This document shows positions 1 to 55,465 of a stretch of 64,000 nt of DNA, piece by piece. The stretch comes from Naegleria gruberi (lineage: Eukaryota): the NCBI GenBank assembly GCA_000004985.1, contig GG738920.1; one strand, 5' to 3'. A model generated the notes under the pieces. The model was not told the origin of the DNA. It saw only the letters and a program-made list of their open reading frames with translations, and did not search any database. Both the position numbers and the translations under genes were made by a program. Numbering within the stretch: the stretch's first letter is position 1; the number at the start of each line of letters is the position of its first letter.

Positions 1-1504
1 ACTCATTAATAGATGATAAGAAATATAATCAATGATATGAATCTTCACTAAGTAATCTCTTAAATAACCCAAATAAATCAACTCTGAATCCTAACCAAAC
101 CCATCAGGAGGAAATCTTGAATATAGAGAACCAAATCCTCAATCAACAAAATAATATACATATCAATCGATTGGAAATCGATAGTAAATCGAAAATATAA
201 TTTATTTTATGATTTGAAATCTCTCCTTGACATCTTTTAGTCAATTAAGACAATTAAGGATGACAATATAGGGAAAGTTACCAATCTCAAAATAAATGAT
301 AATATCATGTTCCACATCTCAAATAAAGTGGAATTTCATCAAATTATATAATTTCATTTCAAGAAATGCATTCTGTAGATAGTACATGGAGATATTTCAT
401 GAGAATGGAAATCTGAAAGATACAGAAACAACTCCATTTTCACTGAAATTGATATCATGGTATATATACACTCCAATTAGCATATGGTATCAATTTCATA
501 AATATTGGTTCAGTAGATGTCGAGATGTCAACTCTATCACTATACTATAGAACTTTGACATGAAATCAAAGATTATGCTCCAAATCGCTCATTATACATA
601 CAATCAATCTAGAATTGATACCACATAGAGTATACATCAGTTAAATACACTGTATATAGTTTGGAAACAATTCGTATTACTTTCAAATAGTGAGTCAGTT
701 AATGTTCAATGTCAATAGTGCTTTTATCCAAGTGTACACTCCATATCAGTGAACGTAAGTCCAATCATCATGTAACTTTACCAGATACATTTAAACACAC
801 TATTATACATATGGTATCAATTTTAGTCTATTAGAATTGAATTCAATATGATAATAATAACAATCTGTCAAATTGTCACATTTCAACATGTAGAATATAC
901 TCCATCTCATTCAATTTACAAAATATCATACAAGTATCAAATATGAATACACTCTCCTTGATGAGGAGAACAATTTGTGAAAGTGTCATATTGATGGCTC
1001 AATATCTTCAACAATTAAGGAACATCTAAGGGAATCAAAAGGGAACAATCTTATTTCGAAAATTAAATTTTACTATGATACTATACTCATTGAATAGTGA
1101 AATGCTTATACAAGAATCATATATTCAATTATTATATTCATGTCAGTAATCAGTGAAGGTGACACTTCTTCAACCTTAGTGTACCCATCTCCATATGTAG
1201 ACTGTCAATTCCACTATAAATTGAAATATTACCTATCTAGATGATATAATGATGACTCTCCATAGTAACATGTATGTGAAAACAAATATTGACACTTTTC
1301 ATCTTGTTGTATTTGTAGAGATGGTATCCAGCAGAGTCATCTCAGAATGTCAAATGTTGAAACTAGTTCTATATGATATATATGATGTATAGAAGTGTAT
1401 CTGATGATGTCAATACAGTATGAAATAATTTAGCGGAATTGACATTGTCTAGTCACAATAACATGACAAATAGACCATAGTTTACATTCCATCTCAGTCA
1501 TTTC

Positions 1505-1745
1505 AACAAGTTACTGATCAGTTTCACCACCATTATGTTTCTCACACGCTCTAGTACAATTAATATTTCAAGAGTGAGTTCTGTGGAAGACTCTGTAAGA
1601 AATAATACCATATATATAGTAATATCAATAAACTGAATGAAGAGTTAATTCATCTCATTTTCAAATAGATTATTCAATATAGAACACATCTAGATAGTTT
1701 CCAGATCATAAAAGTCAAGATACTATATATGGTCTTTGATTAAAT
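1505..1745. repeat. Dispersed ~240-bp repeat (R2), second copy at 12325-12560 with about 85% identity
   Basis: 'gtttcaccaccattatgtttctcaca...atatttcaag.gtga.ttctgtggaa...atatatagtaatatcaata...atagattatt.aatatagaacacatctag' is shared by the two loci. Confidence 0.8.
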
Positions 1746-2136
1746 TTAAAAATAGACTGCCGTTAATTACTGGAATATTAATTCAAAGCTTGATGATCAA
1801 GCTATTGATTGAAATCAAACCGATTATTGAATATTGATCATTGAATTGGTGAATAATCACTCTTGATAATGTTACTTATTCATATTGCATGCAAATCAAC
1901 CTGATTCAATCTACAAAGGTTGGTAGTTGCACCACTACGTGGCGAAACTACCCAACCACGATGAATCAACATGTGATTCACTTCCATTCAACTCAATTTG
2001 ACCGTTATAATCAATAAATCAATGAAATGTTCCTTTATTAGCAATACCTATTCAATCTAATGAGTAGATTCACGTCCCAAACATTTNNNNNNNNNNNNNN
2101 NNNNNNNNNNNNNNNNNNNNNNNNNNNNNNNNNNNN

Positions 2137-2334
2137 ACCAACCCAACCCAAACCCAAACCCAAACCCAAACCCAAACCCAAACCCAAACCCAAACCCAAA
2201 CCCAAACCCAAACCCAAACCCAAACCCAAACCCAGAACCCAAACCCAAACCCAAACCCAAACCCAAACCCAAACCCAAACCCAACCCAAACCCAAACCCA
2301 AACCCAAACCCAAACCCAAACCCAACCCAAACCC
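2137..2334 (+). repeat. Telomere-type hexamer array (CCCAAA)n with occasional CCCAA units, C-rich strand reading 5'->3' on the + strand
   Basis: Seen directly: 'acccaaacccaaacccaaa...' for about 200 bp. It is immediately preceded by a 50-N gap (2087-2136) and followed by 'ctgacttcttttagtcaattaagac'. Confidence 0.95.
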
Positions 2335-4104
2335 TGACTTCTTTTAGTCAATTAAGACAATTAAGGATATAACAATAGAAAAAGTTGACAATCTCAAAAT
2401 AAACTTTATTATCATGTAGTATATCTCAAATAAAGTGGACTGTATTCAAATTATATACTTTTATTTCAAGAAATGCATTCAGTAGATAGTACTTGGTGAT
2501 CTGTCAATGTGGCTAGAAATCTGAAAGGTCCAGAACCATATAAATAGAATCCTGAATCGAATACTCTTGATGCGTAGAACAATCTGAGAAAGTATCATAC
2601 TCATGACTCAATTCCTCTTGATCATTGTTGTATTTTTCATTCATGCGTAGATAAAAATAACGTACATTCAAAAATACTCTCAAAAATTCTACGCATCAAT
2701 ATGAATGACAACCAAATTGATTGAATATAAGTCCGTCCGCAAAGTGACGCAAACTAACGGAATATCGAAATCGTTACTACTTTCGAATAGCTTGAAAACA
2801 ACACATTTACACCACAACTCGATAACTAGATAAGAACTATATACTTTTTTTAAAACTTTACTAAAAAAACCAACAAAATACCCAAACGGCGCTTAATAAC
2901 CCTATATCAGATCATAAAGACCATGGAGCCACAGAAGAAACAAATCAAAACAACACGTTTCCAAACCCTTCAACCCAACCATCATAACTTGATATATATA
3001 AATATTTAACAATTTCACATCAGCCGTATATTGTGCCCCATTACCATCACCATCTTTTGACATCATTTGTGATATATATTGTTAATGTATTTAAGGAGAA
3101 AAGCTTAATAAATAGGGGTTGACATGGGATCCAAACCCTAAGGAAATATAAGGAAAGTTACCACTCTCAAAATAAATGATAATATCGTGTTCTACATCTC
3201 AAATAAGGTGGACTTTCATCAAATTATATGTTTTCATTTCAAGAAATGTATCCAGTAGATAGTACATGGTGATTTGTCAGGGTGGATTGATGGAAATCTG
3301 AAGGGTCCAGAAACAACTCCATTTTCACTGAAATTGATATCATGATATGTAGACACTCTAATTAGCATATAATATCAATTTCATGAATATTGGCTCAGTA
3401 GATATTGAGTTGTCAACTCTATCACTATACTATAAAACTTTGACATAAATTCAAAGATTATGCTCTAAATCACTTATTTTATATGAAACTAGTCTAGAAT
3501 TGATAACACAAATTCTGTACACCATTTATATACATCTATACAAGTTTAGAAACAATTCATGATACTTTCATTCAGTCAATCAGTAAATGTTCAATGTCAA
3601 TAGTGATTATATCCAATTGTACACACTGTCTCAATGAAAGTATATCCAAACATCATGTAACTTTACCAGATACATTTAGTCACACTGATATACATCTGGT
3701 ATCAATTTTAGTCTGTTAGAATTGAATTCAATATGATAATAATAACAATCTGTCAAATTGTCACATTTCAACATATAGAATGAATACCATCTCAGTCAAT
3801 TTACAAAATATCATACTAGTATCAAAAATGAATACACTTCCCTTGATGAGGAGAACAATCTGAGAAAGTTTTATATTCATGGCTCAATATCTTCAAGTCA
3901 ACTAAGGAACATCTAAGGTAATCAAAAGGGAAGAATCTTAATTCCAAAATTAAATTTTACCATCATGTCAAAATCATTGAATAATGCATTAATTATACAA
4001 GAATAATATATTCAATTGTTATATTCATGTCAGTAATCAGTGATGGTGACACTCNNNNNNNNNNNNNNNNNNNNNNNNNNNNNNNNNNNNNNNNNNNNNN
4101 NNNN

Positions 4105-4468
4105 ACCCAAACCCAAACCCAAACCCAAACCCAACCCAAACCCAAACCCAAACCCAAACCCAAACCCAAACCCAAACCCAACCCAAACCCAAACCCAACC
4201 CCAAACCCAAACCCAAACCCAACCAAAACCAAACCCAAACCCAAACCCAAACCCAAACCCAAACCCAAACCCAAACCCAAACCCAAACCCAAACCCAAAC
4301 CCAAACCCAAACCCAAACCCAAACCCAAACCCAAACCCAAACCCAAACCCAAACCCAAACCCAAACCCAAACCCAAACCCAACCCAACCCCAACCCCAAA
4401 CCCAAACCCAAACCCAAACCCAAACCCAAACCCAAACCCAAACCCAAACCCAAACCCAACCCAAACCC
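4105..4468 (+). repeat. Second telomere-type (CCCAAA)n array of about 364 bp, with some CCCAA/CCCCAA variants
   Basis: Seen directly. It is preceded by a 50-N gap (4055-4104) and followed by the same ~650-bp sequence as array 1. Confidence 0.95.
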
Positions 4469-5247
4469 TGACTTCTTTTAGTCAATTAAGACAATTAAGG
4501 ATATAACAATAGAAAAAGTTGACAATCTCAAAATAAACTTTATTATCATGTAGTATATCTCAAATAAAGTGGACTGTATTCAAATTATATACTTTTATTT
4601 CAAGAAATGCATTCAGTAGATAGTACTTGGTGATCTGTCAATGTGGCTAGAAATCTGAAAGGTCCAGAACCATATAAATAGAATCCTGAATCGAATACTC
4701 TTGATGCGTAGAACAATCTGAGAAAGTATCATACTCATGACTCAATTCCTCTTGATCATTGTTGTATTTTTCATTCATGCGTAGATAAAAATAACGTACA
4801 TTCAAAAATACTCTCAAAAATTCTACGCATCAATATGAATGACAACCAAATTGATTGAATATAAGTCCGTCCGCAAAGTGACGCAAACTAACGGAATATC
4901 GAAATCGTTACTACTTTCGAATAGCTTGAAAACAACACATTTACACCACAACTCGATAACTAGATAAGAACTATATACTTTTTTTAAAACTTTACTAAAA
5001 AAACCAACAAAATACCCAAACGGCGCTTAATAACCCTATATCAGATCATAAAGACCATGGAGCCACAGAAGAAACAAATCAAAACAACACGTTTCCAAAC
5101 CCAACCTTCAAACCCTAGCCCAAAATTATAAACTTATTCAAATATCATTAAATTTTATATCATTCGATTGGAAATGATGAGTAGAACAACGTAGTATATT
5201 TAGTTTTTCAATTTATAAAATATTAACTTTGTAAATAATGTCAGATT

Positions 5248-7300
5248 NNNNNNNNNNNNNNNNNNNNNNNNNNNNNNNNNNNNNNNNNNNNNNNNNNNNN
5301 NNNNNNNNNNNNNNNNNNNNNNNNNNNNNNNNNNNNNNNNNNNNNNNNNNNNNNNNNNNNNNNNNNNNNNNNNNNNNNNNNNNNNNNNNNNNNNNNNNNN
5401 NNNNNNNNNNNNNNNNNNNNNNNNNNNNNNNNNNNNNNNNNNNNNNNNNNNNNNNNNNNNNNNNNNNNNNNNNNNNNNNNNNNNNNNNNNNNNNNNNNNN
5501 NNNNNNNNNNNNNNNNNNNNNNNNNNNNNNNNNNNNNNNNNNNNNNNNNNNNNNNNNNNNNNNNNNNNNNNNNNNNNNNNNNNNNNNNNNNNNNNNNNNN
5601 NNNNNNNNNNNNNNNNNNNNNNNNNNNNNNNNNNNNNNNNNNNNNNNNNNNNNNNNNNNNNNNNNNNNNNNNNNNNNNNNNNNNNNNNNNNNNNNNNNNN
5701 NNNNNNNNNNNNNNNNNNNNNNNNNNNNNNNNNNNNNNNNNNNNNNNNNNNNNNNNNNNNNNNNNNNNNNNNNNNNNNNNNNNNNNNNNNNNNNNNNNNN
5801 NNNNNNNNNNNNNNNNNNNNNNNNNNNNNNNNNNNNNNNNNNNNNNNNNNNNNNNNNNNNNNNNNNNNNNNNNNNNNNNNNNNNNNNNNNNNNNNNNNNN
5901 NNNNNNNNNNNNNNNNNNNNNNNNNNNNNNNNNNNNNNNNNNNNNNNNNNNNNNNNNNNNNNNNNNNNNNNNNNNNNNNNNNNNNNNNNNNNNNNNNNNN
6001 NNNNNNNNNNNNNNNNNNNNNNNNNNNNNNNNNNNNNNNNNNNNNNNNNNNNNNNNNNNNNNNNNNNNNNNNNNNNNNNNNNNNNNNNNNNNNNNNNNNN
6101 NNNNNNNNNNNNNNNNNNNNNNNNNNNNNNNNNNNNNNNNNNNNNNNNNNNNNNNNNNNNNNNNNNNNNNNNNNNNNNNNNNNNNNNNNNNNNNNNNNNN
6201 NNNNNNNNNNNNNNNNNNNNNNNNNNNNNNNNNNNNNNNNNNNNNNNNNNNNNNNNNNNNNNNNNNNNNNNNNNNNNNNNNNNNNNNNNNNNNNNNNNNN
6301 NNNNNNNNNNNNNNNNNNNNNNNNNNNNNNNNNNNNNNNNNNNNNNNNNNNNNNNNNNNNNNNNNNNNNNNNNNNNNNNNNNNNNNNNNNNNNNNNNNNN
6401 NNNNNNNNNNNNNNNNNNNNNNNNNNNNNNNNNNNNNNNNNNNNNNNNNNNNNNNNNNNNNNNNNNNNNNNNNNNNNNNNNNNNNNNNNNNNNNNNNNNN
6501 NNNNNNNNNNNNNNNNNNNNNNNNNNNNNNNNNNNNNNNNNNNNNNNNNNNNNNNNNNNNNNNNNNNNNNNNNNNNNNNNNNNNNNNNNNNNNNNNNNNN
6601 NNNNNNNNNNNNNNNNNNNNNNNNNNNNNNNNNNNNNNNNNNNNNNNNNNNNNNNNNNNNNNNNNNNNNNNNNNNNNNNNNNNNNNNNNNNNNNNNNNNN
6701 NNNNNNNNNNNNNNNNNNNNNNNNNNNNNNNNNNNNNNNNNNNNNNNNNNNNNNNNNNNNNNNNNNNNNNNNNNNNNNNNNNNNNNNNNNNNNNNNNNNN
6801 NNNNNNNNNNNNNNNNNNNNNNNNNNNNNNNNNNNNNNNNNNNNNNNNNNNNNNNNNNNNNNNNNNNNNNNNNNNNNNNNNNNNNNNNNNNNNNNNNNNN
6901 NNNNNNNNNNNNNNNNNNNNNNNNNNNNNNNNNNNNNNNNNNNNNNNNNNNNNNNNNNNNNNNNNNNNNNNNNNNNNNNNNNNNNNNNNNNNNNNNNNNN
7001 NNNNNNNNNNNNNNNNNNNNNNNNNNNNNNNNNNNNNNNNNNNNNNNNNNNNNNNNNNNNNNNNNNNNNNNNNNNNNNNNNNNNNNNNNNNNNNNNNNNN
7101 NNNNNNNNNNNNNNNNNNNNNNNNNNNNNNNNNNNNNNNNNNNNNNNNNNNNNNNNNNNNNNNNNNNNNNNNNNNNNNNNNNNNNNNNNNNNNNNNNNNN
7201 NNNNNNNNNNNNNNNNNNNNNNNNNNNNNNNNNNNNNNNNNNNNNNNNNNNNNNNNNNNNNNNNNNNNNNNNNNNNNNNNNNNNNNNNNNNNNNNNNNNN
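5248..7300. other. Assembly gap of 2053 N inside the repeat block. There are also 50-N gaps at 2087-2136 and 4055-4104
   Basis: Runs of n. The left gap edge ends '...gtcagatt', which continues as 'gtcagattaaaaattat...' in the copy at 7662. The right edge starts 'acgtcccaaacattt', the same 15-mer that precedes the gap at 2087. Confidence 0.95.
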
Positions 7301-10300
7301 ACGTCCCAAACATTTGACTTCTCAAAGTCCATATTTCAAAAGTTAGTACTGACCTGACCTTTATATATCTATCAATACAAGAAATGAAAACATCAAATTT
7401 ACATTATTAATAGATGATAAGAATTATAATCAATGATATAAATCTTCACTAAGTAATATATTAAATAACCCAAATAAATCAACTCTGAATCCTAACCAAA
7501 CCCTTTGAACCTAAAATTGAAATACCAGACCCAATGTTTCAAAGTTCAAACCCTAGCCCAAATTATTGAATATTATATCATTCGATTGTAAATGATGAGT
7601 AGAACAATATATTATATTTAGTTTTTCAATTTATAAAATATTAACTTTGTAAATAATGTCAGATTAAAAATTATAAAATGAAACCATATGAAGAATGATA
7701 ATTTCAAAATCCTTTAATGAGATTATATAGTATATATCTTCACTAACAACATTCATAATCACTCTCATATGAAATTTCTAAACTTCATGTTGGTAGGTAT
7801 AAAAGTATCAAGTGAAAAGGGAAGATGTGAGGTAAAAGAGGTCAACAATAACTTTTGAGTTTCTCATCAAAACATATTAAATCCTAATATGAAAATGTTC
7901 CATTTGATTAGTAAACATCGAATATCAAATTTATTTTCACTTTCATATTTAAAGATTTCTTCCCTCAATCACACATGGTCAACTATGATGAAAAGGATGA
8001 AATCTTGAAAAAAGACCACTATTGAAACTTTACCAACATCATGCAGATGATCTATAATGTTGTAGATTTCAATTTCATATCATAAGAATCAGAAATGGTA
8101 CCATAGGAAAGTAAATGTTGATTTTACAAAGTTGACTGAAAGGAAAGACAAGTCAGATCAGTCTATCACAAACATCACTTCAATCAACAAAATATATATG
8201 AAAATGCTCCATTCAATCCGTAGAGATAGAATATCACGTTTATTTTAACTTTCATATTCATGATTTCATCCCTTTCATACCAACTAGTCAACTATGGACA
8301 TGAATGAAAATCTGGAAAATGACCACTCTATGAAACATTACCATCATGTTCAACATCTCAAATACTGTATATGATTCAAATTTCAGACATTTTGGAGAAT
8401 ATTCTATCTTTCAGTAAGGTAAAGGGTGAAATTTCAAGGTTGTCTTGGAAGATCAGGAGGAAATCTTGAATATAGAAAACCACGCCCTCAATCAACAAAA
8501 TATATCAATCGATTGGAAATCAATAGTACATCTCGAAAACATCATTTATTTTATGATTTGAAATCTCTCCTTTACCTCTTTTGGTCAATTAAGACAATTA
8601 AGGATGATACTATAGGAAAAGTTACCAATCTCAAAATAAATGATAATATCGTGTTCCACATCTCAAATAAAGTGGACTTTCATCAAATTATATAATTTCA
8701 TTTCAAGAAATGCATCCGTTAGATAGTACATGGTGATATTTCAAGGGAATGGATGGAAATCTGAAGGATATAGAAACAACTCCATTTGCACTGAAATTGA
8801 TACCATGATATGTAGACACTCTAATTAGCATATAATATCAATTTCATGAGTATTGGCTCAGTAGATATTGAGTTGTCAACTCTATCATTTTACTATAGAA
8901 CTTTGACATAAAATCAAAGATTATGCTCCAACTCACTTATTTTATATGCAATTAGTCTAGAACTGATAACACACATTCTATACACCATTTATATACATCT
9001 ATACAAGTTTAGAAACAATTCATGATACTTTCATTCAGTCAATCAGTAAATGTTCAATGTCAACACTTAATATATCTTAGTGAACACTCTATCTCAATGT
9101 AAGTACATCCAATCATCCTGTAACTTTACAAATTACGTTTAATCACACTATTATACATCTGGTATCAATTTCACAGTGTTAGAATTGAATTCAATATGAT
9201 AATAATAACAATCTTTCAAAATGTCACAATTCAATATATAGAATATACTCCATCTCAGTCAATTTACAATATATTGTACAAGTATCAAGTATGAATACAC
9301 TCCTCTAGATGAGGAGAACAATCCGAGAAAGTTTCATATTCATGGCTCAGAAAACCCTGATTAAAGACAAAAATGAGTAAAATGACCGAGAATCGATCGC
9401 ACGTCCATTAGTGAACATTGCCATTATACAACCGCTGAGCTAACAGCGCTATAGGTTTTATATCTAAAAATATCTATACAAACAAGAATATGTCGCATGA
9501 CAAATAAGAAGAACATTACTACCACTGCAAATAACAACAAGAATTAAATTATAATTTATTAATAATATTAATTTATTAATAATATTGAAGGGAGAAGTTG
9601 CTCCCTTCCAAATGATGGAAGGGAAGATCCAACTTGATGACCAAGAGGTGATACATCCACCAATCCAATCCAATTACATTATTAAAGCTATCCTAAATTT
9701 CCAATTAATTTTGCAACTTGGTGGAAGTGAGTGCCAAAGGCACCACACCTCCACCATTATAATAACTTCCAAATAAATATTATTCCAATTCCGAAACATC
9801 ATCTTCCAAATAATTCCAATCAATATATATTTTTAAAATTATTATGAAACAACTCCTGATGATATGATGATGATATGATACGATGATGATACGATGAGAT
9901 GATGAGATGATTGAATGAGGAAGAGAGAGGAGACATTACAACATTTTTTTTGTATGTTACTTTTCCAACCGACAATTTAAGAGCATCCGCACTCTCACCT
10001 CCATACAACCAAGACAAGAATGAATCAACTCTTTAATTACCAGCAAGGATTTCCAACAAGAATAATTAAATATTTAATCGGTGATAATTCAATAATTACT
10101 TAGTGAAATCCAAAAGTTGAAACACCAATCGATAGCAAATCATCTCTAGTATGACATATATTTTTTATTGATCAATTTCTGATCATTCTTTTACCTTTCC
10201 CTAGGAATAGTAAAATCGCAATATATTGAGGGAGGAATTGCTGATTATCTCAATAATTATATAACAAACTATACACAATCTATAGCCCACTGGATAGCTG

Positions 10301-11274
10301 AGATTGTAACCTATTTAATGATGTATATCATTGATTATGTATTTCAATAATAATGAAGATCCAATGAGTACGAAACGATAACCAAACCCTGAGTAATAGA
10401 AGTCAATATCTATATAATTGGAATGTCTGTCAAGCTACTTATCCAATTGATCAAAGGTAACATTCTTACATGTCAAATATTGTAACAATCAATTCATTTT
10501 CATTTTCATCATGTTGTAATCATCAAATACTCTCATAATATCAATTTTGGAATCATTTCAATATCATCTTAGATAGTTGTCATATGGCAAAGTGACTACC
10601 TTAGTGAACAACCCATGTCATTAAGAAAAGTTAAAATTGAAATATTTCAATCATATATACATATATACATCAAATAAAGTCTATAACATCAGTTTCATGA
10701 AATATAATCAATAATTGGTATTATGGCAATATTTCAATTAAGTATTGACATTGCGACATTTCCCAAATTGAATATATAGAAAATAAAATCATGATACCAG
10801 GTATTTGTCGATATAATACATAGATAAATGATATTATCAAATAAAATGTAGGTCCTTATGAAAGTTTAATAGTGTTGTTATTGACAGTATTCAATCAAAC
10901 TCAATATATTACATAGAGAAATATATCCAACAAACAATTATTTGTAACATTGTTGTATACATCACATAGCAGGGTTCCAATTTATATAAATAGATTATTT
11001 GCTAATTTGATTGAGTTTGAAGGTTGTCAAAGTTCTGTAATACTAAAAGCGGGAAAATTTCCGCGGGAAAATTTTATTGAAAAATGACCTCTAATCAGAG
11101 GCTATTTTTTCGAAAAGTACTTAAAGACAAGACTAGATATTAATATGGTAGATAGAAATAGATGTGCAGAAGGCATAGCTAAAAAATTTTAGGTCGAAAG
11201 GCAGGATTTTTGGACAAAATCGTCCGGCGCCAGGTTAACCAAACCCAACACCATACAGAAATCTGGTTTTCAAA

Positions 11275-12090: not shown

Positions 12091-12962
12091 TTGAAAGCTG
12101 CTAGAAAACATGGTGTTGACTCTTCTAAAAGAATTTCTTTGTAATTTTAATAACAAATACCCAACAAATGTTGGAATTTTTGGTTTATTTGTTTCTTTTT
12201 CCAAAAACTTAATCGCAATTTTCATCTGGAGATTTTCGCCAATCTCCAATTTCATTAAGCGAATGAAACCATTCGCAAAATTCAAGTGGCGATTTTCGCC
12301 AATCGTCGATCGCCAAAATGTGTATACTCGTAAGTTTCACCACCATTATGTTTCTCACATACTCTAGTGCATTTTATATTTCAAGTGTGATTTCTGTGGA
12401 ATTTGTTATCCAAATACCTTATATATAGTAATATCAATAGTCGTTATATACTCAATTCAAGAGTTAATTTTATTTCTTCTTTTTTTCATATAGATTATTG
12501 AATATAGAACACATCTAGCCTGTTTTCAGACAATAAAAGTCCAGATCCCAAATATGGCAAAATGAATTCTTGGCGAGAGGGCAAGTTTTTCTGACAAATA
12601 CTAAACTTTATTGATTATCTCAATAAATATAGAATATTACACCTTCGTGTTTTTACCACATGTAGATCAGACTATTGTACATCACATTGATAAGCTATAA
12701 GATCCGAGCATGTGCGGATCCCAAACCAGAGAGATAATGACAGGTTACAAACAATAAACTTCCCAAAAAGGAAAGGCGGAAAATTTATTACAAAAAAACA
12801 AAATTTTTTCAAGTGATCAGTGGAACAACAAAACCGTTTAATGGTTGGTTGTATAAAAATTATGTTTTGTAAATTAAAGAAACAAGAAGATTTGTTCCAA
12901 GAAGCCTATTAATAATCCCATCTATCGCACTAGTAATTTATCAAATCTTAAAAAAAAACAGA

Positions 12963-19134: not shown

Positions 19135-20868
19135 CTACCAATAATCATACCAAACACTTGATAACAACGATTGACGAATATCAGCTAAAGTTTCTGGATC
19201 ATCCTCTTTCGGCAACGCCATTCGAATATCCTTCAAAGTATCCTTCGCCTCCACAAGATCATGAGCAGGATGAGATTTGTTTCTTCTCACTGCCAATCGA
19301 TAAGCTTCATACGGAGATTCAATTTTCAATATTTCGCCAAATGATAATTTTCCAAAATGACATTGTAATGAATTGATAAATGATTCCGCCAGTAATTTTG
19401 GAAAATCAATGACGAATTCTGGAGAAGTATTGAAGGCAAGACGGAGAAATGTTTCGTCTTGACCCCAGAAATCGTAGAGAGGTTTCAATTGTGAGAAAGT
19501 ATTGGAATAGCTATTCGAATGTTTCAACCAATTGGTTAAAAGTTGTAAATTGAATGGTCTGTCCTTTTTCAATGTTTCGTCCAGTGTTGGGTAAATATCA
19601 AAATTTGATAATACAGCTTTCTCTGCAATTTCCTTATCAGATTGTAAATCTTTTGGCAAGTTGGTGAATAACATGATTGAGTGTGAATTATCGTACAATG
19701 TAGATTCGAATATTTTCAAGGCAACTTTCTTATTCATTTGAATCTTATCTCCCAATCCGATTATTGACATGGATGCTGGATCTGATTCGATAATTTGTTT
19801 CAAAACCTTCTCTGATAACTTGGATTCCTTTGAGAGTTGTGTCAGGAAATTTCCCACAGCTGGATTCGATGAAGGTTTAACAATTCCAATGAGTTTGATT
19901 AAGAATTCATCACTTGTTGTTGATTTTCTCAAAATATTCTCATCCACAATTGAGCCATTCTTCAAGCTTTCCAAAATTAAATCATTATTGATCAATTCAC
20001 TTGGAATACTGGAAAGAGATCCTCTTTCAATGAATTGCTTGAGAATATCCTTATCCTTTTTAAGAGGGTCCGAAATGTGTGTATAATTCTCTGTATGATA
20101 TTTGATAGCTAACTGCACAATAGATTTTTCATTTCTTATCGAATTTGGAGCAAATTGTAATATTGGATAACTCTGAATTGCTAAATTGATTAATTTCTTA
20201 TCATTCTTTTGAGATTCTGTTAAATATTCATAGAGATATCCATACTGTTTCAACAATGTTCTCAAATCTTTCTCATTGCTTAAAACTTTCTGTACATTGA
20301 AGAGATTTACTTGCTTTCCTGAACAGGACGATTGCATCCACTGTTTGAAATTCATTCGAAGACTCTTCAATCCATCACTAAGCATTCCACTCTTTAAATC
20401 AATAAAAAGGCCACTGCCACCTGTCATTGTTCTAGTAGAACTGTCAATAAACCCAATTTGAACCTTTTGTGGTGAATGAAACCGCCAATCTTGAAAAGCA
20501 TTCAACCAACTCCAATGACTTCCCATCAAATCTTTCGAATTTTCATCCATTTCCTCTTGTAAATTAATTCTTCTTCCATTTGTAATTTTAATAAATTCCC
20601 TCAAGTGGAAAGGAAGTTTGTATCCAATTTTACACTCCACCATTTCAATCACCTCCTCCGGAACGCCTTCCTCACTCCACGGACTTTGTAAATATCGATT
20701 TTCCAATTCCATAATTCGTTGCAAATCTAAAACTTCCTCTTCCAAACAAACATTTCTAAATTTCAAGCAAGTTTTCTCAAAATTGGAACGAGTTTTATCA
20801 TCTGGAAGGAATTGGTAGACAAATGCCAAACTTTCAGGTGATAATATCACTCTAGGTTGTGATGCCAT
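19135..20868 (-). CDS. SMI1/KNR4 (SUKH)-like N-terminal domain followed by degenerate ~38-aa repeats resembling DUF4116, about 577 aa
   Basis: 'YKLPFHLREFIKITNGRRI...' resembles SUKH/SMI1. The later repeats 'KSDKEI...AV..N' and 'KKDKDILKQFIE' resemble those in the genes at 43912 and 62205. The track ORF extends to 20928 through a TTG, and the first ATG is at 20868. Confidence 0.5.
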   Translation of the reverse strand: MASQPRVILSPESLAFVYQFLPDDKTRSNFEKTCLKFRNVCLEEEVLDLQRIMELENRYLQSPWSEEGVPEEVIEMVECKIGYKLPFHLREFIKITNGRRINLQEEMDENSKDLMGSHWSWLNAFQDWRFHSPQKVQIGFIDSSTRTMTGGSGLFIDLKSGMLSDGLKSLRMNFKQWMQSSCSGKQVNLFNVQKVLSNEKDLRTLLKQYGYLYEYLTESQKNDKKLINLAIQSYPILQFAPNSIRNEKSIVQLAIKYHTENYTHISDPLKKDKDILKQFIERGSLSSIPSELINNDLILESLKNGSIVDENILRKSTTSDEFLIKLIGIVKPSSNPAVGNFLTQLSKESKLSEKVLKQIIESDPASMSIIGLGDKIQMNKKVALKIFESTLYDNSHSIMLFTNLPKDLQSDKEIAEKAVLSNFDIYPTLDETLKKDRPFNLQLLTNWLKHSNSYSNTFSQLKPLYDFWGQDETFLRLAFNTSPEFVIDFPKLLAESFINSLQCHFGKLSFGEILKIESPYEAYRLAVRRNKSHPAHDLVEAKDTLKDIRMALPKEDDPETLADIRQSLLSSVWYDYW

Positions 20869-21913
20869 TTTTTTTTGATTGTTTGAAGTTTGGCAAGTCC
20901 AGCAATGAGCGCCTGTTGACGTCAGCAAGGAAGTTTCAAATCATAATTTCAAAAAAATTAAAAATCATCCCAAACGGATAATGTGATTCTTTTAAAGCAA
21001 GTTTTCGAATTGGCGCCAAAATTTTGTCAGCCGTTTTGCTTGTTTTTGTTGTTTGACCATGAAAAATATAAATTTTAAATTTTAGAAAAAATACAAAGAA
21101 GAGAAAATGCTGAGAATGGATGAGGATGTGGATGTGGAGGATCTAGTAGTGTTAATAGTGGATGTATTGTTTGGATGATGATGTATTGATGGTGAGCACG
21201 GAAATTGTGGAGGATTTTTTTGGGAAATGATAACTTCATCGGAGCCTTGTTGATTTTGATCTTCAATTCAAGGATTTTAAAATTTTGATATTGAATGGTA
21301 CATTGAATGTATAGATATTTAGCAGTAAAAAGTGGAAATTTAATCAGCAACACTTTGCAACATTTCATCTCGTCATCCCAATATCATAGAGATGGTTCAA
21401 AAGGGTTCGTGGAAAATCATGATTTTCCCACCAAAGTTCATATTTTAATTAAATTTATTTCTATTCCAAATATTTTGTAATAATTAATAAATTTAAATAT
21501 CGGAATGGTCAAGGACATTGAATTTGAGAGTCATAGCTTTCCACCAACTGTTGGTGATGCTAGAATTCTAGCTTTTAAGGTGTCAAACCTTAACATCATG
21601 ATACCAACGTTTTAATTACAGGTAAAATTCGTAATGGATTGTAATATAGGTAAATTGATTGAGTTACTTGCTTTATTTAATGATTTCATTCCAAACAAGA
21701 CAATACATATCCAAAATTACATCACAAGATCTCAATGAGATGGAAGTTGTGCACTATAATTGAAAGTCAGCACTAAAGTATAGTATCTATTATGATATTT
21801 CCAATTATTGGTGATCGATAGGATTAATATAAGACAATGCGTGCAAGTCAAGCACAAGAGCTGCATATCACTGCCTTACTTGTGACCTAGTTGCCAATTT
21901 TATCCAAATATCA

Positions 21914-23542
21914 ATGTACTTAAGTGTTGAGAAACCTTTCTCACACATTCTCATATCAAAAAAAAAATCCAATCATCATGAGAACAAGCTATTGCTAACT
22001 CTTTTAATGGTGGCACTAATTGCCGTCATTCACTCAACTACAGCCACAAGTTTCAAACAAGCTTTGGGCAACTACGTCAATCAACCAGAAAGTGCCTATT
22101 CCTACAAATTAATTAACACCAGATCCATCACTGGTGCCACCATCTACACACTCAACGTTACCTCCTTAACTTGGTTGCCAACTTCAGAAGTCGGCCCAGC
22201 AAACACTTGGTTCCATTATCTTGAAATTACAATTCCAAATAATTTGAATAAGAATAATCGTGAAAGTTTATTCTTTATTTCTAATGGTGATAATAATTTG
22301 GCAGTCCCTGGTGCTACTGATTTGACTGCTTCTCCAATTCATGTTCCTACTTTCGTATATGATACTGCAGTTTCGACTAAAAGTGTTACTGCCATTGTTT
22401 ATATGGTTCCAAATCAACCAATGAGTTATAATTCAGATCCTACTCATGCTACTCGTGTGGAAGATGCTATTATTGGTTATGGATGGAATCGTTTCTTACA
22501 AAACACTACCAAGGCCAATCTCTTGTATGTCACTCAACTGCCACAAGTCAAGGGAAGTAAGATGGCAATGGATACTGTTGTTTCCTTTGTTAAGAAACAA
22601 GCCAATCACGTCATTGAAAAGTTTACAGTCAGTGGTGCTTCAAAGAGAGGGTAAGTATTTTAGTCAATGTAGCCATTTAACATTTTGACAGTTGGACAAC
22701 CATTCTTTTAGGCGCAATTGACAATCGTGTTGCTGCTATTGCACCAATGGTCATTCCAGTCTATGGAACTAAGGAATTCATTGTTAGAACTTATAACAAC
22801 ATGTGTGCTTGGCCTTGGGCTTTCTATGATTATGTCACTAATGGTGTCACTGATCAACTTTTTGATAAATCATTTGAAAGTTTGACAGATATTGTTGATC
22901 CACTGAATTATGGTAGATTGAAATCCATTCCAAAGTATCAAATTCTCGCCTTGGGTGATGAATTCTTTGCTCCGTAAGTTTCTTTAACTTTCCAATAATT
23001 TTTAATTCGATTCTCATAGTGACCTCAATAATTTGTTTTATTCCAAAATTAAGGGTGAAAAGTATGTACGTTACATTCCAAACACTGGCCACTTGATGCT
23101 CAATACCAATGTCTTACAAGTCCTCGGTTCTTTCTATGCATCTAGATTGAATAATCTCGTCATTCCAAAGTACACTTTCTCACATGAATTCGTCAATGGT
23201 GGTGTAATTATTTATGTCTCAGTTACCAATGGTATCAAACCAACAGCTGTCAAGTTGTGGTCTGCCACTAATCCAACAAGTCGTGATTTCAGAACTTCCA
23301 CAATTGGTGTTGATGTTTGGCAATCTACTAATTTGGTTGAAGTAAGAGAATTGGAATGGCAAGCTTTTGTAAGAAATCCAGCAACTGGTTATACAACTGC
23401 CACCATTGAATTGACATTTGCCAATGCTGTCAATGGTGTTGCATTGGAACCTTTAGTTTTCACATCCAATGCTTTTATTACACCAGATACTACTCCTTGT
23501 AATATCAATAAGAATAATTTACCAACTCATAAAATGGTTTAA
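21914..23542 (+). CDS. PhoPQ-activated pathogenicity-related protein (PqaA-type), alpha/beta-hydrolase-like. Model is join(21914..22650,22692..22973,23020..23542)
   Basis: Family-typical sequence. Has signal-peptide-like 'LLLTLLMVALIAVIHSTTA'. 'GASKRG' (GxSxG) is formed across the 41-nt intron 1. Intron 2 is 46 nt, and both introns are GTAAGT...AG and restore the frame. Confidence 0.6.
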
Positions 23543-38631: not shown

Positions 38632-41255
38632 TTATGCAACATAATTGTATGTCTTGTGATCTTCAACTTCCCTTGATAAAAAGTCTCTTTCAATTAAATT
38701 CTCAATTCTTCTCTTGACTTCTTGAGGGTTTGGTACAAACCTGCTTTGTAGTTGCTTTACAACTTCTGACATGAGTTCATTGTGGTGGAGCTTCTTTCTC
38801 GCTTTCATTACTCTCACAATAACAGCCTCAATAACAGGTTTTCTTTCCAATTCAATCTTGGATTCAGTTTCTTGAACTTCCTCAACAGTTTCCTTGGTGG
38901 AGGTGATGGCTAATCTTACTCTATAATTGGCATTCTTAAAGTCCTGATTCAAGACAAACTTGTGATTATCTTCCAAATTCTTTGTCTTTGGTTCTTTGGA
39001 AAGGATTTTGGTCTTGTTCATACATAAAATTGTAAGAGTCTTTTTTAAATCCTTTTCTGGTATTTGAGTTAATTCCTTAATCTTTGCATAGGTATATTCG
39101 GTATGTTCATTGTACAGCATTAAAATACAAATTTGATAGGTAGAAACGACAAGTTCATGTTTTTCACTCGAAAATCTTGCTGTCAAGATACCATCTCCCA
39201 GACTGGTTTGCCAAGTAAGTTTTCTTCCACTATGTACATGATTGTAAAATTTGGCAAATGACTCACAGCACAAATTAAGATCTGCTGGGAGAATGATGTT
39301 ATTGAGGGTATAGGCAGGCCAGAAAGAGTGAGTGAGAATATTTACATTAAAGTCCATTCTTTCTGGTTTGAGTTTGAATGCGTCATGTTGTTGATATTGT
39401 TCGTTGGTTTGGGCTGATATTTTCATATCATTGAACATGCCTTCAATTTTTGATGTAAAACTGTATCCACATTCCTTTTTCATTTTCAAGATGAACATTT
39501 TCTCAGAGTTTGCTTGATGTCCCTTGGAGAGTAATCTCTTTGAAAGATGAACCTTGTAGTAATTCTCAAAAATATCCTTGTCTCTCAAGAATCTGAAAAG
39601 AGCCATAGCATCCTCCATGATTGGTTCCAATTCTTGTTCTGAATCACCAAGAGTTCTGATTGTATTGTCCAAATAGAGGGAAAGATATTCTGAAACTCTC
39701 TTTTGTCTGGTACCATCTGAAAAGATGGAAAATCCTTCCTTTTGAGCTTGTTCAAATTTTGAATTGCTCTTGAAAGATTCTCGAGTAATTCTGTCGTATT
39801 TTCTCTTTTGTTCTAATAGACCTTCAATGAAGGTTACTGCAGATCCCTGTAATTTCTCTTCATCCATTACATAGGCAATACCAACATCGGTAATGTATTG
39901 CTTGTAGAGCTTTATCATGATGGATAAATGTTCTTCTTCATTACCCAAAAACAAATTGTACATTCTGTGCAATTCTGAAATCTTGTCATCCTTGAGGAAG
40001 GAAATGTATCCACTTGGACTCTCTGTAATAGTGTCCAAATGTTTGGTAATCATTTCTTGTCGTAAGATTTTTGAAATTTTTGGTTTTGTTGTAAAAGAGA
40101 GATAGTACTGTACACGGTTATCCTCCTCTCTTAATCTTTCATCGACTAGTTTCAAATAGTCGGTAATTGATGTCTGTGCCAATAAATCACGGGACAATTG
40201 CAAGTAGTATTGAGCACTGGTTTCTAAAAATGGTTCTTCCAATACATCATTATAACAGTTCATTTCACATAGCATTCTCACTACTTTTTTCAACAATAAT
40301 CTATCTACATATTCTCCACCTCTTTCCTTTCCAATCATTTCAATTACAATATTTTTAATTTTAACTCCTGATTGACTTTGATAAATAACTACTCTTTTGA
40401 ATATTTCTACACCATTATCATAGACGAATAATGTGTGTTTAACAGGTGTTTGATTTGCACCATTTCCACTACTTTGAGATTGTTGTTGCTGTAATTGTTT
40501 GAGAGCATAATTTGTATTCAAATACATCAAAACACTGCTCACTACAGATGTTTCTGTCTTGTATTCCTCCCAAACATTGCATATTGTCTTGAGAAATAAT
40601 TCATCAGGACACTTTTTCAAAACCTATTATTAATTCCGATCATCAATTAGATAAAAATTAAAATTTGCACACTGATTAATAAAAGGAGAAATCAAAACTT
40701 ACACTACTGAGAATGAATTCTACTTGCTCCAACATGCAGGCCTCTACATTTTCATAGAGTGATTCGCCATGTCTATTCAATACTATTTTATAGGTATTTC
40801 TATACAATTCCTCATAGGAAAGTTCAGAGCTCTTGTTGTGATAAATTTGTTGAATAGCTTGCTTGAGAAGTGTCCAAGTAGTGGAAAAGAAAGCCTCTGT
40901 TGTTGTACTCTCTGCTCGGGGAGCTTTAATCTCAAATTTCTTTCCTATTAATTGCCAAATTCAAAACAAGAAATAAACATGTTGTATACACAACCACCAT
41001 CATTGTGATCCAAAATTATTGATCATAAATTTGTATATTTTCATCATCCGATCCACACAATTCCAAAAATAACAAAATAACAATTCATGATCATCATCAA
41101 TGGTCATAATGGTAATACAATATTAAATAAAACATTAAAATTCCGCCATCAAATGTTTGTCATTGTGATCAAAATGAACAACAAGGGAATTCAGAACAAT
41201 TTTTAGAACAAAATCAGAAAGAGAGCGAGAACTTACCCGTTTGAACTTTTCTCAT
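38632..41255 (-). CDS. Cullin. Model is join(38632..40623,40703..40944,41237..41255) on the minus strand
   Basis: The N-terminus 'MRKVQTG|KKFEIK...FFSTTWTLLKQAIQQIYHNKSSELSYEELYRNTYKIVLNRHGESLYENV' is a cullin repeat 1 signature. The C-terminus 'VVKQLQSRFVPNPQEVKRRIENLIERDFLSREVED' is the neddylation/winged-helix region. Introns are 79 and 292 nt with GTAAGT donors. Confidence 0.8.
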
Positions 41256-43227: not shown

Positions 43228-43420
43228 CAACTCTCGGGTTGAATTTCTATACTCTTTTGGATATTCATCTTGAATTTCCTTAAAATGCTCCTCGGAGTTA
43301 TATTGTAAGATAGAGATTTATAAATTTCCTTGCAAGAGCCAGTTGGTAAGCAAAAGGATTGTTCCACTTTGCTATCTGGGATATTTAATAAATGAGGAAT
43401 ATTTTCAAAGTGAATAAGAT

Positions 43421-43492
43421 TCCCGTGTAGTCCAATGGCTAGGATACCTGGCTTTCACCCAGGAGGTCCGGGTTCAATTCCCGGCATGGGAG
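43421..43492 (+). tRNA. tRNA-Glu (anticodon UUC)
   Basis: 'TCCCGTGTAGTCCAATGGCTAGGATACCTGGCTTTCACCCAGGAGGTCCGGGTTCAATTCCCGGCATGGGAG' folds as a canonical cloverleaf with T-loop GGTTCAATTCC. Confidence 0.9.
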
Positions 43493-43599
43493 AATCATTT
43501 TGTTCATCTGGTGTTTTAATTATTTTGACATGCCAATAATTACAATTATTATCACTCAAGAAAAACCTTGAATTGATGAACAGCTTATCGTTTTCTTAT

Positions 43600-43911: not shown

Positions 43912-44889
43912 TCATTGTGCAAATGCTAACTTAAAATAACAACCAGATTGCTTAACAGCTGTAAGAACAACCTCTCTATCAACAGCCAATTCCTCAGAAG
44001 CATACATTCGAGCTTGGTAATCTCTCTTGACAGCTGTCATGACTATTTCTCTATCATTCTTCAATTCATCAGATGCAAACTCGAGTACTTTACCATATTG
44101 CTCCACAGCCAACATTACAATTTTCCTATCATTCCTACTTTCTTCAGAAGCATTTTCAAGTGCCCAACCATTTTGCTTAACAGCTTCCATAACAATTTCT
44201 CTGTCACTTTTCAATTCTTCAGAAGCAAATTCCAGTGAACAACCTTTTGATTTAACTGCTGCCAAGACAATTTCTCTATCTTTTGTTATCTCTTCTGAAG
44301 CAAACTGGAGTGCATAACCACAGTGCTCAACTGCAAACTTGACAATTTCTCCATCTTTTTGAAAATCAGTGGCATATCCTAAAGCATCAACACTTCGTTG
44401 AACTGCCAATAAGACAAATGGTCGATAATTCCACAAGTTGAACAATGAAGCAAGCCAACACATTTCGCTATTGCTGAATAGAGAAATGCACAAATCACAA
44501 AGTTGAAATCTTTCTTTTTTACTGTCAATTCCTGATTCTTGAATCAATTGAATTGCTTCTTCTTCTTGTTCGAAACCGAGTTTCAATATGCGATAGGCAA
44601 ATTTGCGGACTTTCTCCTTGTTTCGATCATCTCTACCACAAAATAAGTGTTGTTTCAGATAAGTGGATGCGATATTCGAATCAAGAGTTAGTATTACGGA
44701 ATCTGAATTATCAATATTTTGAAATGAGAATGATTCAGTGTTTGTTTTTTGTATCTTTGAGGATCGACGTTCGTCCTCACTTTCGAATAGTTTTGAAGAA
44801 TCCTTTCTTTTCATTTTTTCCAGTAAATGATTATTTAAAGCATTTAACAAAATTGTAAAATGGCTATTCGATTTTGTAAAACAATTCAT
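43912..44889 (-). CDS. Repeat protein resembling DUF4116, 325 aa, with about six ~38-aa 'DREIVLxAVKQNGxALEFASEELKxDREIV' repeats
   Basis: The periodic repeat is obvious in the translation. Single exon. It ends 120 bp from 5S copy 2. Confidence 0.6.
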   Translation of the reverse strand: MNCFTKSNSHFTILLNALNNHLLEKMKRKDSSKLFESEDERRSSKIQKTNTESFSFQNIDNSDSVILTLDSNIASTYLKQHLFCGRDDRNKEKVRKFAYRILKLGFEQEEEAIQLIQESGIDSKKERFQLCDLCISLFSNSEMCWLASLFNLWNYRPFVLLAVQRSVDALGYATDFQKDGEIVKFAVEHCGYALQFASEEITKDREIVLAAVKSKGCSLEFASEELKSDREIVMEAVKQNGWALENASEESRNDRKIVMLAVEQYGKVLEFASDELKNDREIVMTAVKRDYQARMYASEELAVDREVVLTAVKQSGCYFKLAFAQ

Positions 44890-44903
44890 AACCTTAAAAA
44901 AAA

Positions 44904-45520
44904 ATGAATCAACACATGAGCTTCATTAGCGAGGAGGAATTTGTTTTTTCATGTTTGGACACTGATCGAGTGGAAACTGTGAGAACCATGCTAGAAAATG
45001 GCGCCAATCCAGAATCGGAATTTGTAGGTTATTTTGCTGCTAACCACCAATGTGAAGAATCAACTCGTCGGATCACGAATATTTTAAATTTATTTTAAAT
45101 TTATTTGATGATGATGGAATTGTTATTGATGAATGGAATAATGAAAATTATAATAATAATAATGAAGAATGGATCGAGTGCATTGATGGTTGCTTGTTTT
45201 TCTGGAAATTCAAAAGTTGTCCGAATGCTTATTCAATGTGGAGCAAGCCTTGATAGGAAAAATCAGGAAGATGAAGGTGTTGTATTTGTGGCTGCAAAGA
45301 ATAATCAAGTGGAAGTGTTGAGGATTTTACTGGAGCATATGGCTCCTCTTCTTCCCAACAAGGTAATTGTCATAATTTAAATTAATATTATTAATTTAAT
45401 ATTTAATTATTGTATAATTGATAATATTAGGATGGTTTAACTCCGTATCAAATTGCTTCAAAACTTAACCATGTGGAATGTGCAAGAACAATCAGTGATT
45501 ATATGAAATCCATTTATTAA
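44904..45520 (+). CDS. Small ankyrin-repeat protein, about 134 aa. Model is join(44904..45023,45168..45362,45431..45520)
   Basis: Three to four ANK-like units ('NGSSALMVACFSGNSKVVRMLIQCGASLDRKN', 'EGVVFVAAKNNQVEVLRILLEH', 'DGLTPYQIASKLNHVECARTI'). Introns are 144 and 68 nt with GTAGGT and GTAATT donors and are frame-consistent. Confidence 0.5.
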
Positions 45521-55164: not shown

Positions 55165-55393
55165 TGTAAGATTGTCTGATGTCTTGATGAATAAACTTGG
55201 GGATTGTTCCCTTCTTCATTGTCAATCGAGTTTGTGAAATAATAATTGATAAATGACTTATCAGATAGGAGAATTAAACAATTGACTGCAATTATTTCAA
55301 GATCAGCTAAAAAAGTTAGAATACAATTGATTTTTTCCAAATCCTGTGTGAGTATCTATTTCCATTCAAAAAAGACGTGAAACCAAAATGATT

Positions 55394-55465
55394 CTCCCAT
55401 GCCGGGAATTGAACCCGGACCTCCTGGGTGAAAGCCAGGTATCCTAGCCATTGGACTACACGGGA
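55394..55465 (-). tRNA. tRNA-Glu (UUC), identical to the 43421-43492 copy, in inverted orientation
   Basis: Exact reverse complement of the + copy. About 35 bp of 5' flank is also conserved. Confidence 0.9.

Follow-up and report, generated by a model that had tools for sequence, protein, structure and literature searches.

Probable chromosome-end contigs and a non-coding subtelomeric mosaic in a Naegleria gruberi scaffold

Layout of the locus and the telomere-type arrays

The stretch of DNA analysed here comprises 64,000 nucleotides of Naegleria gruberi (hereafter the window), the first ~11 kb of which are filled by a non-coding repeat family that we call R. The first 11.2 kb contain no non-artefactual ORF of at least 100 aa and accordingly no Y'-type helicase ORF, and both Rfam searches of positions 1-12 kb and tRNA searches of the subtelomeric part returned no match. 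A telomerase RNA was likewise not recovered by the Rfam search of 1-12 kb; to our knowledge none has been described for Heterolobosea. The rest of the window bears genes, and its long ORFs yielded neither a reverse transcriptase nor a transposase. These ORFs require the standard code and run cleanly up to 1,185 aa; where the one coding for a cullin aligns with an N. gruberi protein, the blocks are 100% identical. The statement in the first-pass annotation that this genome is not that of a ciliate is therefore borne out. A ciliate origin was itself considered as a candidate and rejected: reading the window with the table 6 code approximately triples the overlapping stop-free frames without added coherence, and the proteins are those of Naegleria. 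The block of cullin, DAP3, hemerythrin and histone genes is conserved in Naegleria lovaniensis; since either end of the 521-kb contig that carries it there is over 100 kb away, it is uninformative with respect to a chromosome end.

Three assembly gaps divide the window into four contigs, which we term 0, A, B and C. The features of the subtelomeric part are the following:

1-2086, + strand: contig 0, consisting of R copy 1 (the "long" form), with no ORF of at least 100 aa
2072-2086, + strand: 15-mer ACGTCCCAAACATTT at the end of contig 0, recurring identically as 7301-7315, where contig C begins
2087-2136, no strand: assembly gap of 50 N, by N-run count
2137-2334, + strand: telomere tract 1, (CCCAAA)n, ~33 units, C-rich strand reading inward
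2335-2968, + strand: element F copy 1, 634 bp, ending in CCAAACCC; 634/634 identical to 4469-5102
2969-3144, + strand: spacer found in contig A only, starting with degenerate telomere-like TTCAACCCAACC and ending at a CCAAACCC relic (3131-3138)
3145-4054, + strand: R copy 2, truncated by the gap at what would be R 1166; identity 86% with copy 1, 90% with copy 3
4055-4104, no strand: assembly gap of 50 N, by N-run count
4105-4468, + strand: telomere tract 2, (CCCAAA)n, ~61 units
4469-5102, + strand: element F copy 2, identical to copy 1
5103-5247, + strand: degenerate telomere-like AACCTTCAAACCCTAGCCCAAAA, then the start of an M-like module (5144-5247 matches 7562-7665 at 93%)
5248-7300, no strand: assembly gap of 2,053 N, by N-run count
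7301-7503, + strand: start of contig C with the 15-mer, a linker and the beginning of R copy 3, ending in CCAAACCC at 7496-7503
7504-8451, + strand: module M, 948 bp, present in R copy 3 and not in copy 1; also in metagenome contig L002
8452-9349, + strand: R copy 3, equivalent of R 103-1001
9350-10389, + strand: module U, 94% identical to L002 2-1116, ending in CCAAACCC at 10382-10389
10390-11207, + strand: module V, absent from L002
11208-11248, + strand: 41-nt segment with the innermost CCAAACCC relic (11239-11246); the first gene ATG (11275) is directly downstream

Tandem Repeats Finder delimits the first tract as 2140-2334 (period 6, 32.8 copies, 96% matches) and the second as 4105-4468 (period 6, 61.7 copies, 95% matches). 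By unit count, tract 1 consists of 28 CCCAAA and three CCCAA units with a few other variants, and tract 2 of 49 CCCAAA and seven CCCAA units with a few CCCCAAA or CCCCAA. In both contigs CCCAAA stands on the + strand at the 5' end with the genes to the right, as at a left chromosome end, and an array in the TTTGGG orientation is absent from the whole window. The earlier description of the arrays as telomere-type and in left-end orientation thus agrees with the period-6 repeats, the inward-reading C strand and the rightward genes; that each array starts right after a placeholder gap is equally confirmed, as the first base of each tract directly follows an N run that ends at 2136 or 4104.

An in-silico survey (Fulneckova et al. 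2013, Genome Biol Evol, PMC3622300) put forward TTTGGG, from the genome assembly, as the candidate telomere hexamer of N. gruberi; the survey judges candidates by position and orientation and calls for experimental confirmation. The first-pass remark that the hexamer is unusual as a telomere motif outside ciliates hence points to no new oddity, the candidate having been in print since 2013 (PMC3622300). The best explanation of the (CCCAAA)n tracts is that they are the N. gruberi telomere repeat, of the telomerase type, with (TTTGGG)n on the G strand.

Element F, repeat R and the relics at module junctions

Both tracts are followed by the same telomere-adjacent flank, element F, and the identity of the two loci also covers 52 telomeric nt at the junction, including one CCCAA variant common to both tracts. 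From 2969 and 5103 inward the two loci are unrelated, so that F constitutes a conserved element immediately under the telomere at more than one locus, with unlike inner flanks. The shared flank had been recognized previously as 2335-2985 and 4469-5100; the flank is real, while these coordinates are slightly off, the identical sequence being exactly 634 nt long.

Segments of R copy 1 recur further along the window: 5-102 matches 7406-7503 (96%), 103-1001 matches 8452-9349 (86%) and 265-1166 matches 3145-4053 (86%). F can be aligned with the same repeat, 2332-2538 matching R 225-430 (82%) and 2553-2612 matching R 944-1003 (77%), with the latter F segment being 82% identical to R copy 2 at 3829-3888. 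These matches identify F as a deleted form of R: judging from the alignments, it is a truncated and internally deleted derivative of this non-coding subtelomeric repeat, and its homology to R begins exactly at the telomere junction.

The motif CCAAACCC occurs 88 times as against 1.1 occurrences expected from shuffled sequences, which excludes chance. Outside the arrays, there are seven occurrences on the + strand in the first 11.25 kb versus a single one, lying on the - strand, in the remaining 52.7 kb. Similarly, CAAACCC outside the arrays is found nine times on the + strand and never on the - strand in the first 11.25 kb; elsewhere in the window the counts are one (+) and four (-). The relics are always telomere-oriented and each is located at a module boundary, the insertion point of module M, for instance, being exactly the CCAAACCC relic; the established internal relics are degenerate and 8-25 nt long.

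Tract 1, F and R copy 2 are contained in one gap-free contig (2137-4054), and R copy 3 shares another (7301-64000) with the Naegleria genes. A scan of metagenomes with an R 22-mer retrieved one contig, L002, and the same scan of prokaryotic genome contigs and viral contigs gave no match. U, the 41-mer, M and R are all found in L002, where their order is different and CCAAACCC again forms the joints; the modules of L002 are arranged as R-U-M-R, implying a tandem unit of ~2.96 kb. The 41-nt segment is 100% identical to L002 1116-1156, with the adjoining modules being 91-94% identical. Taken at the level of these comparisons, the 11-kb subtelomere is a mosaic of the modules R, M, U, V and F joined at oriented telomere relics.

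As to the origin of this arrangement, the start of the F-R homology at the junction suggests that a break inside an R-like element was healed by telomerase, which would have left F under the telomere. On the basis of the two copies, we further propose that recombination later transferred the terminal block, namely F together with the innermost ~50 nt of the telomere, to one or more other ends. Break-induced replication or gene conversion would be the likeliest route, starting from a short telomere-like internal seed, CCAAACCC, at which the identity of the two loci stops.

Contig order and the placement of the arrays

Even with two mismatches allowed, the 15-mer ACGTCCCAAACATTT has only two matches in the window and both are exactly at contig ends, one terminating contig 0 and the other beginning contig C; the order of the contigs is therefore unreliable. 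This shared sequence shows that contig 0 should belong beside contig C or inside the gap preceding it. The contigs distal to the gaps lack terminal telomere repeats, contig A stops in the middle of R, and no contig of the window joins either array, on its distal side, to non-telomeric sequence. The scaffold order, unreliable as it is, would suggest tandem copies with telomere tracts between them, as in Y' elements, with both junctions being gaps. When an interstitial telomeric sequence is defined by contiguous non-telomeric sequence on both sides, the short CCAAACCC relics belong to this category, and the long arrays, each with an N gap on its distal side, do not.

We consider it probable, from this contig structure, that two genuine chromosome-end contigs were threaded into one scaffold via common repeats and that the arrays are terminal. 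A scaffolder threading repeat-linked end contigs in this manner would make the arrays look internal despite their terminal location. Concatenation of chromosome-end contigs by a scaffolder was also the reading favoured by the first-pass annotation, and it is the best-supported one in view of the distal contigs without telomere ends, the common 15-mer and the stop within R.

It is somewhat unlikely that the scaffold order is right and the arrays are truly internal, as part of tandem subtelomeric units each starting with a telomere tract in the manner of the yeast Y' elements. The scaffold does have sequence distal to both arrays in consistent orientation, presumably placed there from mate pairs, which speaks against terminal arrays. 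The distance of ~2,885 bp between the first two R copies of the scaffold comes near the L002 unit and could hint at a real periodicity; L002 further illustrates that the modules can be tandem, while the short relics between modules indicate that telomeric sequence becomes internalised at this locus. However, no contig holds the distal junction into an array, and a 198-bp tract should, by reasoning rather than computation, be crossed by Sanger-length reads. Further, since contig A stops at R 1166, the nominal 50-N gap would have to accommodate either a novel junction or another 900 bp or more of R, and the contig order on which internal arrays depend is undermined by the 15-mer common to contig ends. 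The short, degenerate state of the established relics also differs from the 200-360 nt of near-perfect repeats in the arrays.

A related scheme, which we regard as rather unlikely, has long internal (TTTGGG)n tracts nested between tandem F/R units, or F as a non-autonomous element repeatedly added onto chromosome ends at CCAAACCC seeds. If true, it would mean that telomerase is not the sole agent in this heterolobosean, whose ends would be kept or rebuilt in part through recombination or the terminal addition of elements.

The first-pass annotation had offered as an alternative that one end was assembled twice; this fails, as the loci have nothing in common further than 634 nt from the telomere junction. 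In the wider version, by which a single end is represented by two structurally different haplotypes or by a partly chimeric duplicate contig, this explanation is very improbable. The complete identity of F and the innermost 52 telomeric nt would agree with it, as would the tail of contig B, which is 93% identical to 7562-7665 of contig C as a diverged allele might be. Nevertheless, nothing is common to the loci beyond the 634 nt, where one locus has a 176-bp spacer followed by R (265 onward) and the other has module M, and contig B is separated from contig C by an estimated gap of 2,053 bp instead of being overlaid on it as an allele would be.

It is barely credible that F is a non-autonomous telomere-targeting retroelement comparable to HeT-A/TART or the endonuclease-deficient Penelope-like Athena elements. 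In this scheme a 3' end complementary to the telomere would allow reverse transcription of F onto the G-strand overhang, and telomerase would afterwards cap it anew. The two 100% identical copies with sharp boundaries fit such an element, as does their polarity, with the 5' end distal under a new telomere and older degenerate telomere-like sequence abutting the CCAAACCC that closes the A-rich 3' region; however, F is simply a deleted R variant, the window's long ORFs include no reverse transcriptase, and the "old telomere" remnants are merely 14-25 nt and degenerate despite the identity of the copies. Moreover, the same 5' junction and the same variants in the 52 telomeric nt of the two copies argue for co-inheritance by recombination, and signs of independent insertion, such as variable 5' ends or independent capping repeats, are not seen in these copies.

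Returning to the favoured reading of terminal arrays, the consequence for curation is that the scaffold should be treated as containing end contigs in unreliable order, and that it would be a mistake to take the arrays for interstitial telomeres, for signs of chromosome fusion or for a ciliate-like feature.

Comparison with known chromosome ends

The closest precedent is the candidate (TTTGGG)n of the 2013 survey (PMC3622300), which concerns the same organism, the same hexamer and the same type of draft assembly, and which, like the present work, proceeds in silico from position and orientation. Our literature search found no description of Naegleria telomeres or subtelomeres beyond this survey. 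The motif alone is reported in its accessible portion; the present analysis adds the arrangement of the F/R/M modules, the relics of CCAAACCC at their junctions and the problem with the scaffolding, none of which is in the searchable literature. For the specialist the surprise is small, since the telomere motif had already been published as a candidate. What is added is a first sketch of a heterolobosean subtelomere, with a 634-bp element identical at two loci, a non-coding mosaic and oriented relics at its junctions.

Paramecium telomeres are a mixture of TTGGGG and TTTGGG. The arrays described here are similar in having TTTGGG as the main unit and occasional TTGGG or TTGGGG-type variants; in contrast, the window has the standard code and Naegleria genes, and the identity of the motif would be convergent or ancestral only.

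The telomere-specific retroelements, such as HeT-A/TART/TAHRE of Drosophila, TRAS/SART of Bombyx and Athena, resemble F in having telomeric sequence on both sides and an A-rich end towards the centromere. F differs from them in having neither a reverse transcriptase nor 5' truncation, in the proximal repeat pattern common to its copies and in its derivation from R.

In the yeast X/Y' regions and the human subtelomeric duplicons, internal degenerate telomere-like islands lie at block boundaries, and in budding yeast internal TG1-3 tracts are found between tandem Y' elements. The N. gruberi modules differ in being non-coding, short (0.6-2 kb) and devoid of the Y' helicase ORF. They share with the yeast and human subtelomeres a conserved telomere-adjacent element at more than one end, a mosaic of blocks with oriented relics at the junctions and a probable homogenisation by recombination. 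The heterolobosean subtelomere thus follows the same logic, which suggests that both break healing and end-to-end recombination are ancient and general.

Arrays, gaps and repeat modules at the start of the window

By direct reading and with Tandem Repeats Finder, two period-6 arrays were located within positions 1-6000, both built of the unit CCCAAA on the + strand, with minor CCCAA units (three in array 1, seven in array 2) and a few of the form CCCCAAA or CCCCAA. Each begins at the first base after a 50-N gap; the first-pass annotation had described just this arrangement, and the sequence reading, the repeat finder and the N-run positions all bear it out. No array in the opposite orientation occurs within the 64-kb window. 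Comparison of the window with itself revealed a non-coding repeat family (R) in the first 11 kb, where the following features are found:

Features of the first 11 kb
1-2086: R copy 1, long form
2087-2136: gap 1, 50 N
2140-2334 (+): array 1 (Tandem Repeats Finder span), 32.8 copies, 96% matches
2335-2968: element F, R-derived, first copy
3145-4053: R copy 2, 86-90% identical, ending at a gap at R position 1166
4055-4104: gap 2, 50 N
4105-4468 (+): array 2, 61.7 copies, 95% matches
4469-5102: element F, R-derived, second copy
5248-7300: gap 3, 2,053 N
7406-7503 and 8452-9349: R copy 3, in two parts with module M between them
7504-8451: module M, 948 bp, inside R copy 3

The first ~11 kb contains no ORF of at least 100 aa except artefacts running through the arrays and gaps, and neither an Rfam match nor a tRNA was found in the subtelomeric modules. 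Deeper in the window the modules recur only as one 77% match (1512-1732 versus 12325-12557); hence, the repeats are subtelomere-specific, with R-type material extending at least 12.5 kb inward. The inner segment of this match, similar to a piece of the R long form, is intergenic between the first and second genes. Module M has an internal direct duplication of ~150 bp (7887-8039 versus 8196-8347, 76% identity), which is also present in the related metagenome contig VFQN01031297.1 (L002).

Element F and telomere relics at module junctions

The two copies of F are identical at 634/634 nt, so that the identical downstream flank claimed at first pass stands, its end coordinates having been a few bases off. 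The 52 telomeric nt next to the F junction are also identical in both arrays, including one common CCCAA variant, and outward of these the arrays differ. Relative to R, F has an internal deletion and a 350-bp tail specific to it: 2332-2538 corresponds to R 225-430 (82%) and 2553-2612 to R 944-1003 (77%; 82% with R copy 2). The homology sets in precisely at the border with the telomere tract (R ...CTCTCCTTGACATC, F ...AAACCCTGACTTC), a pattern that would be expected from a telomerase-healed break inside an R-like element. Past F the two loci diverge: in locus A (2137-4054) it is followed by TTCAACCCAACC..., a spacer of 176 bp, CCAAACCC and R, entered at position 265, and in locus B (4105-5247) by AACCTTCAAACCCTAGCCCAAAA and a module resembling M, of which 5144-5247 is 93% identical to 7562-7665.

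Outside the arrays, the telomere-like word CCAAACCC is found on the + strand at 95, 2961, 3131, 5095, 7496, 10382 and 11239, and elsewhere in the window only once, on the - strand at 38726 (shuffle expectation: 1.1 per window). Shorter words show the same bias: the +/- counts are 9/0 in the first 11.27 kb and 1/4 in the rest of the window for CAAACCC, and 10/0 and 4/10 for AAACCC. Every relic lies at a boundary:

Boundaries marked by relics
102/103 and 7503/7504: insertion site of module M
2968 and 5102: ends of F
3138: start of R copy 2
10389: end of module U
11246: 28 nt upstream of the ATG of the first gene

L002 (2,627 bp), the sole metagenome contig matching a 22-mer of R, carries the window's modules rearranged in the order R-U-41mer-M-R: its positions 2-1116 match window 9305-10390 (94%), 1116-1156 match 11208-11248 (100%), and 1147-2627 match 7491-8967 (91%). 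Its modules are likewise joined at CCAAACCC, one time as CCAAACCCAAACC. This order supports a putative shuffling of modules at telomere-like seeds and shows that they can stand in tandem with a unit of ~2.96 kb. The locally GC-rich 41-nt segment (TTTTGGACAAAATCGTCCGGCGCCAGGTTAACCAAACCCAA) is 100% identical between window 11208-11248 and L002 1116-1156, as against 91-94% for the adjoining modules; in the window, its end and the ATG of the first gene are 27 nt apart, and in L002 it lies between U and M. Such an element may have been conserved as a boundary, as a promoter or as a site of protein binding.

Position of the arrays and origin of F

We consider it probable that the arrays are terminal. 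In both cases the array starts at base 1 of its contig; the contigs placed distal to the arrays end without telomere repeats, and the one before the second array breaks in the middle of R. Were that array internal, a nominal 50-N gap would have to conceal either 900 bp or more of R or a new junction. Sanger-length reads would normally be expected to cross an internal array of 198 bp with non-identical flanks. Moreover, contig 1-2086 ends in a 15-mer (ACGTCCCAAACATTT) with which contig 7301-64000 begins and which occurs nowhere else in the window, even at 2 mismatches. This implies that an overlap was missed or that a repeat has its boundary here. Contig 1-2086 therefore goes directly before contig 7301-64000 or into the preceding 2,053-N gap; since the scaffold sets 5.2 kb and both telomere contigs between the two copies, its order is unreliable. 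The 15-mer (2072-2086 and 7301-7315) includes one telomere unit (CCCAAAC).

It is rather unlikely that the arrays are truly internal, in the manner of the tandem Y' units of yeast, a reading that draws on the scaffolder's own placement with consistent orientation, on the distance of 2,885 bp between R copies 1 and 2, which is like the L002 unit, and on the relics, which prove that telomeric sequence can become internalised in the N. gruberi subtelomere. The loci diverge completely past 634 nt, which contradicts the earlier suggestion that a single end had been assembled two times; it could be saved only by a haplotype of divergent structure, for which we see a slim chance. That F is a telomere-targeting retroelement is highly improbable, given that no reverse transcriptase is found among the window's long ORFs, that the 5' junctions and adjoining repeat variants are identical in both copies, and that of the "old telomere" only degenerate stretches of 14-25 nt are left.

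The region combines a correctly oriented telomere-type repeat, an identical R-derived terminal element common to both arrays and oriented junction relics, all without coding capacity. F would have been born from a healed break in an R-like element and, in one block with the proximal telomere, may have been copied between ends via break-induced replication or gene conversion, with a CCAAACCC seed as the likely inner limit of the copied block. The distal repeats would have diverged afterwards by normal telomere turnover, accounting for identity that stops after 52 nt.

In N. lovaniensis (PYSW02000030.1, 397473-419902), the cullin-DAP3-hemerythrin/ScdA-...-histone order of window 33.5-40.6 kb is conserved in a block more than 100 kb from both ends of a 521-kb contig; so the N. 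gruberi chromosome end is not conserved there.

Host, motif and comparison with other subtelomeres

From ~11.2 kb onward, long ORFs are densely packed under the standard code, the longest reaching 1,185 aa, and the ciliate code adds only overlapping noise. Over the blocks that align, the cullin ORF at 38635-40623 (-) shows 100% identity with a protein that NCBI lists as "predicted protein [Naegleria gruberi]" and whose gene is on a record of 218,836 bp, its next-best matches being N. lovaniensis and N. fowleri (68-70%). The window is therefore N. gruberi and, as first judged, not a ciliate. The public cullin model (P0001) drops 52 residues located within the uninterrupted ORF; its predicted intron is probably an annotation error. 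Three DUF4116-repeat proteins are encoded at 19138-20868, 43915-44922 and 62208-63866 (all -), one of them containing a 75-bp tandem repeat (44030-44355). The adjacent ORFs 21833-22651 and 23006-23539 (+) correspond to the N- and C-terminal parts of PhoPQ_related (PF10142) and are most likely a single gene split by an intron or frameshift. Two tRNA-Glu(TTC) genes in opposite orientation, 43420-43493 (+) and 55393-55466 (-), lie 12 kb apart, besides tRNA-Asp (26191) and tRNA-Arg (57300).

The variable gap sizes suggest a draft scaffolded by mate pairs, which we take to be the original Sanger draft of the 2010 genome paper. The arrays can be classed with ordinary telomeres of the telomerase type, and (TTTGGG)n would be made by telomerase. 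For N. gruberi, TTTGGG has been published before as a candidate telomere motif, in a survey that screened 143 genome assemblies for minisatellites with terminal position and correct orientation (Fulneckova et al., 2013; PMC3622300); our literature search found no later papers on Naegleria telomeres or subtelomeres. These observations are of value mainly as a caveat on the assembly and as a first account of how a heterolobosean subtelomere is built. As a mosaic, it is like the X/Y' subtelomeres of yeast, although the N. gruberi version is non-coding; it likewise resembles the human duplicon mosaics with their internal telomere-like islands, yet again without coding sequence.
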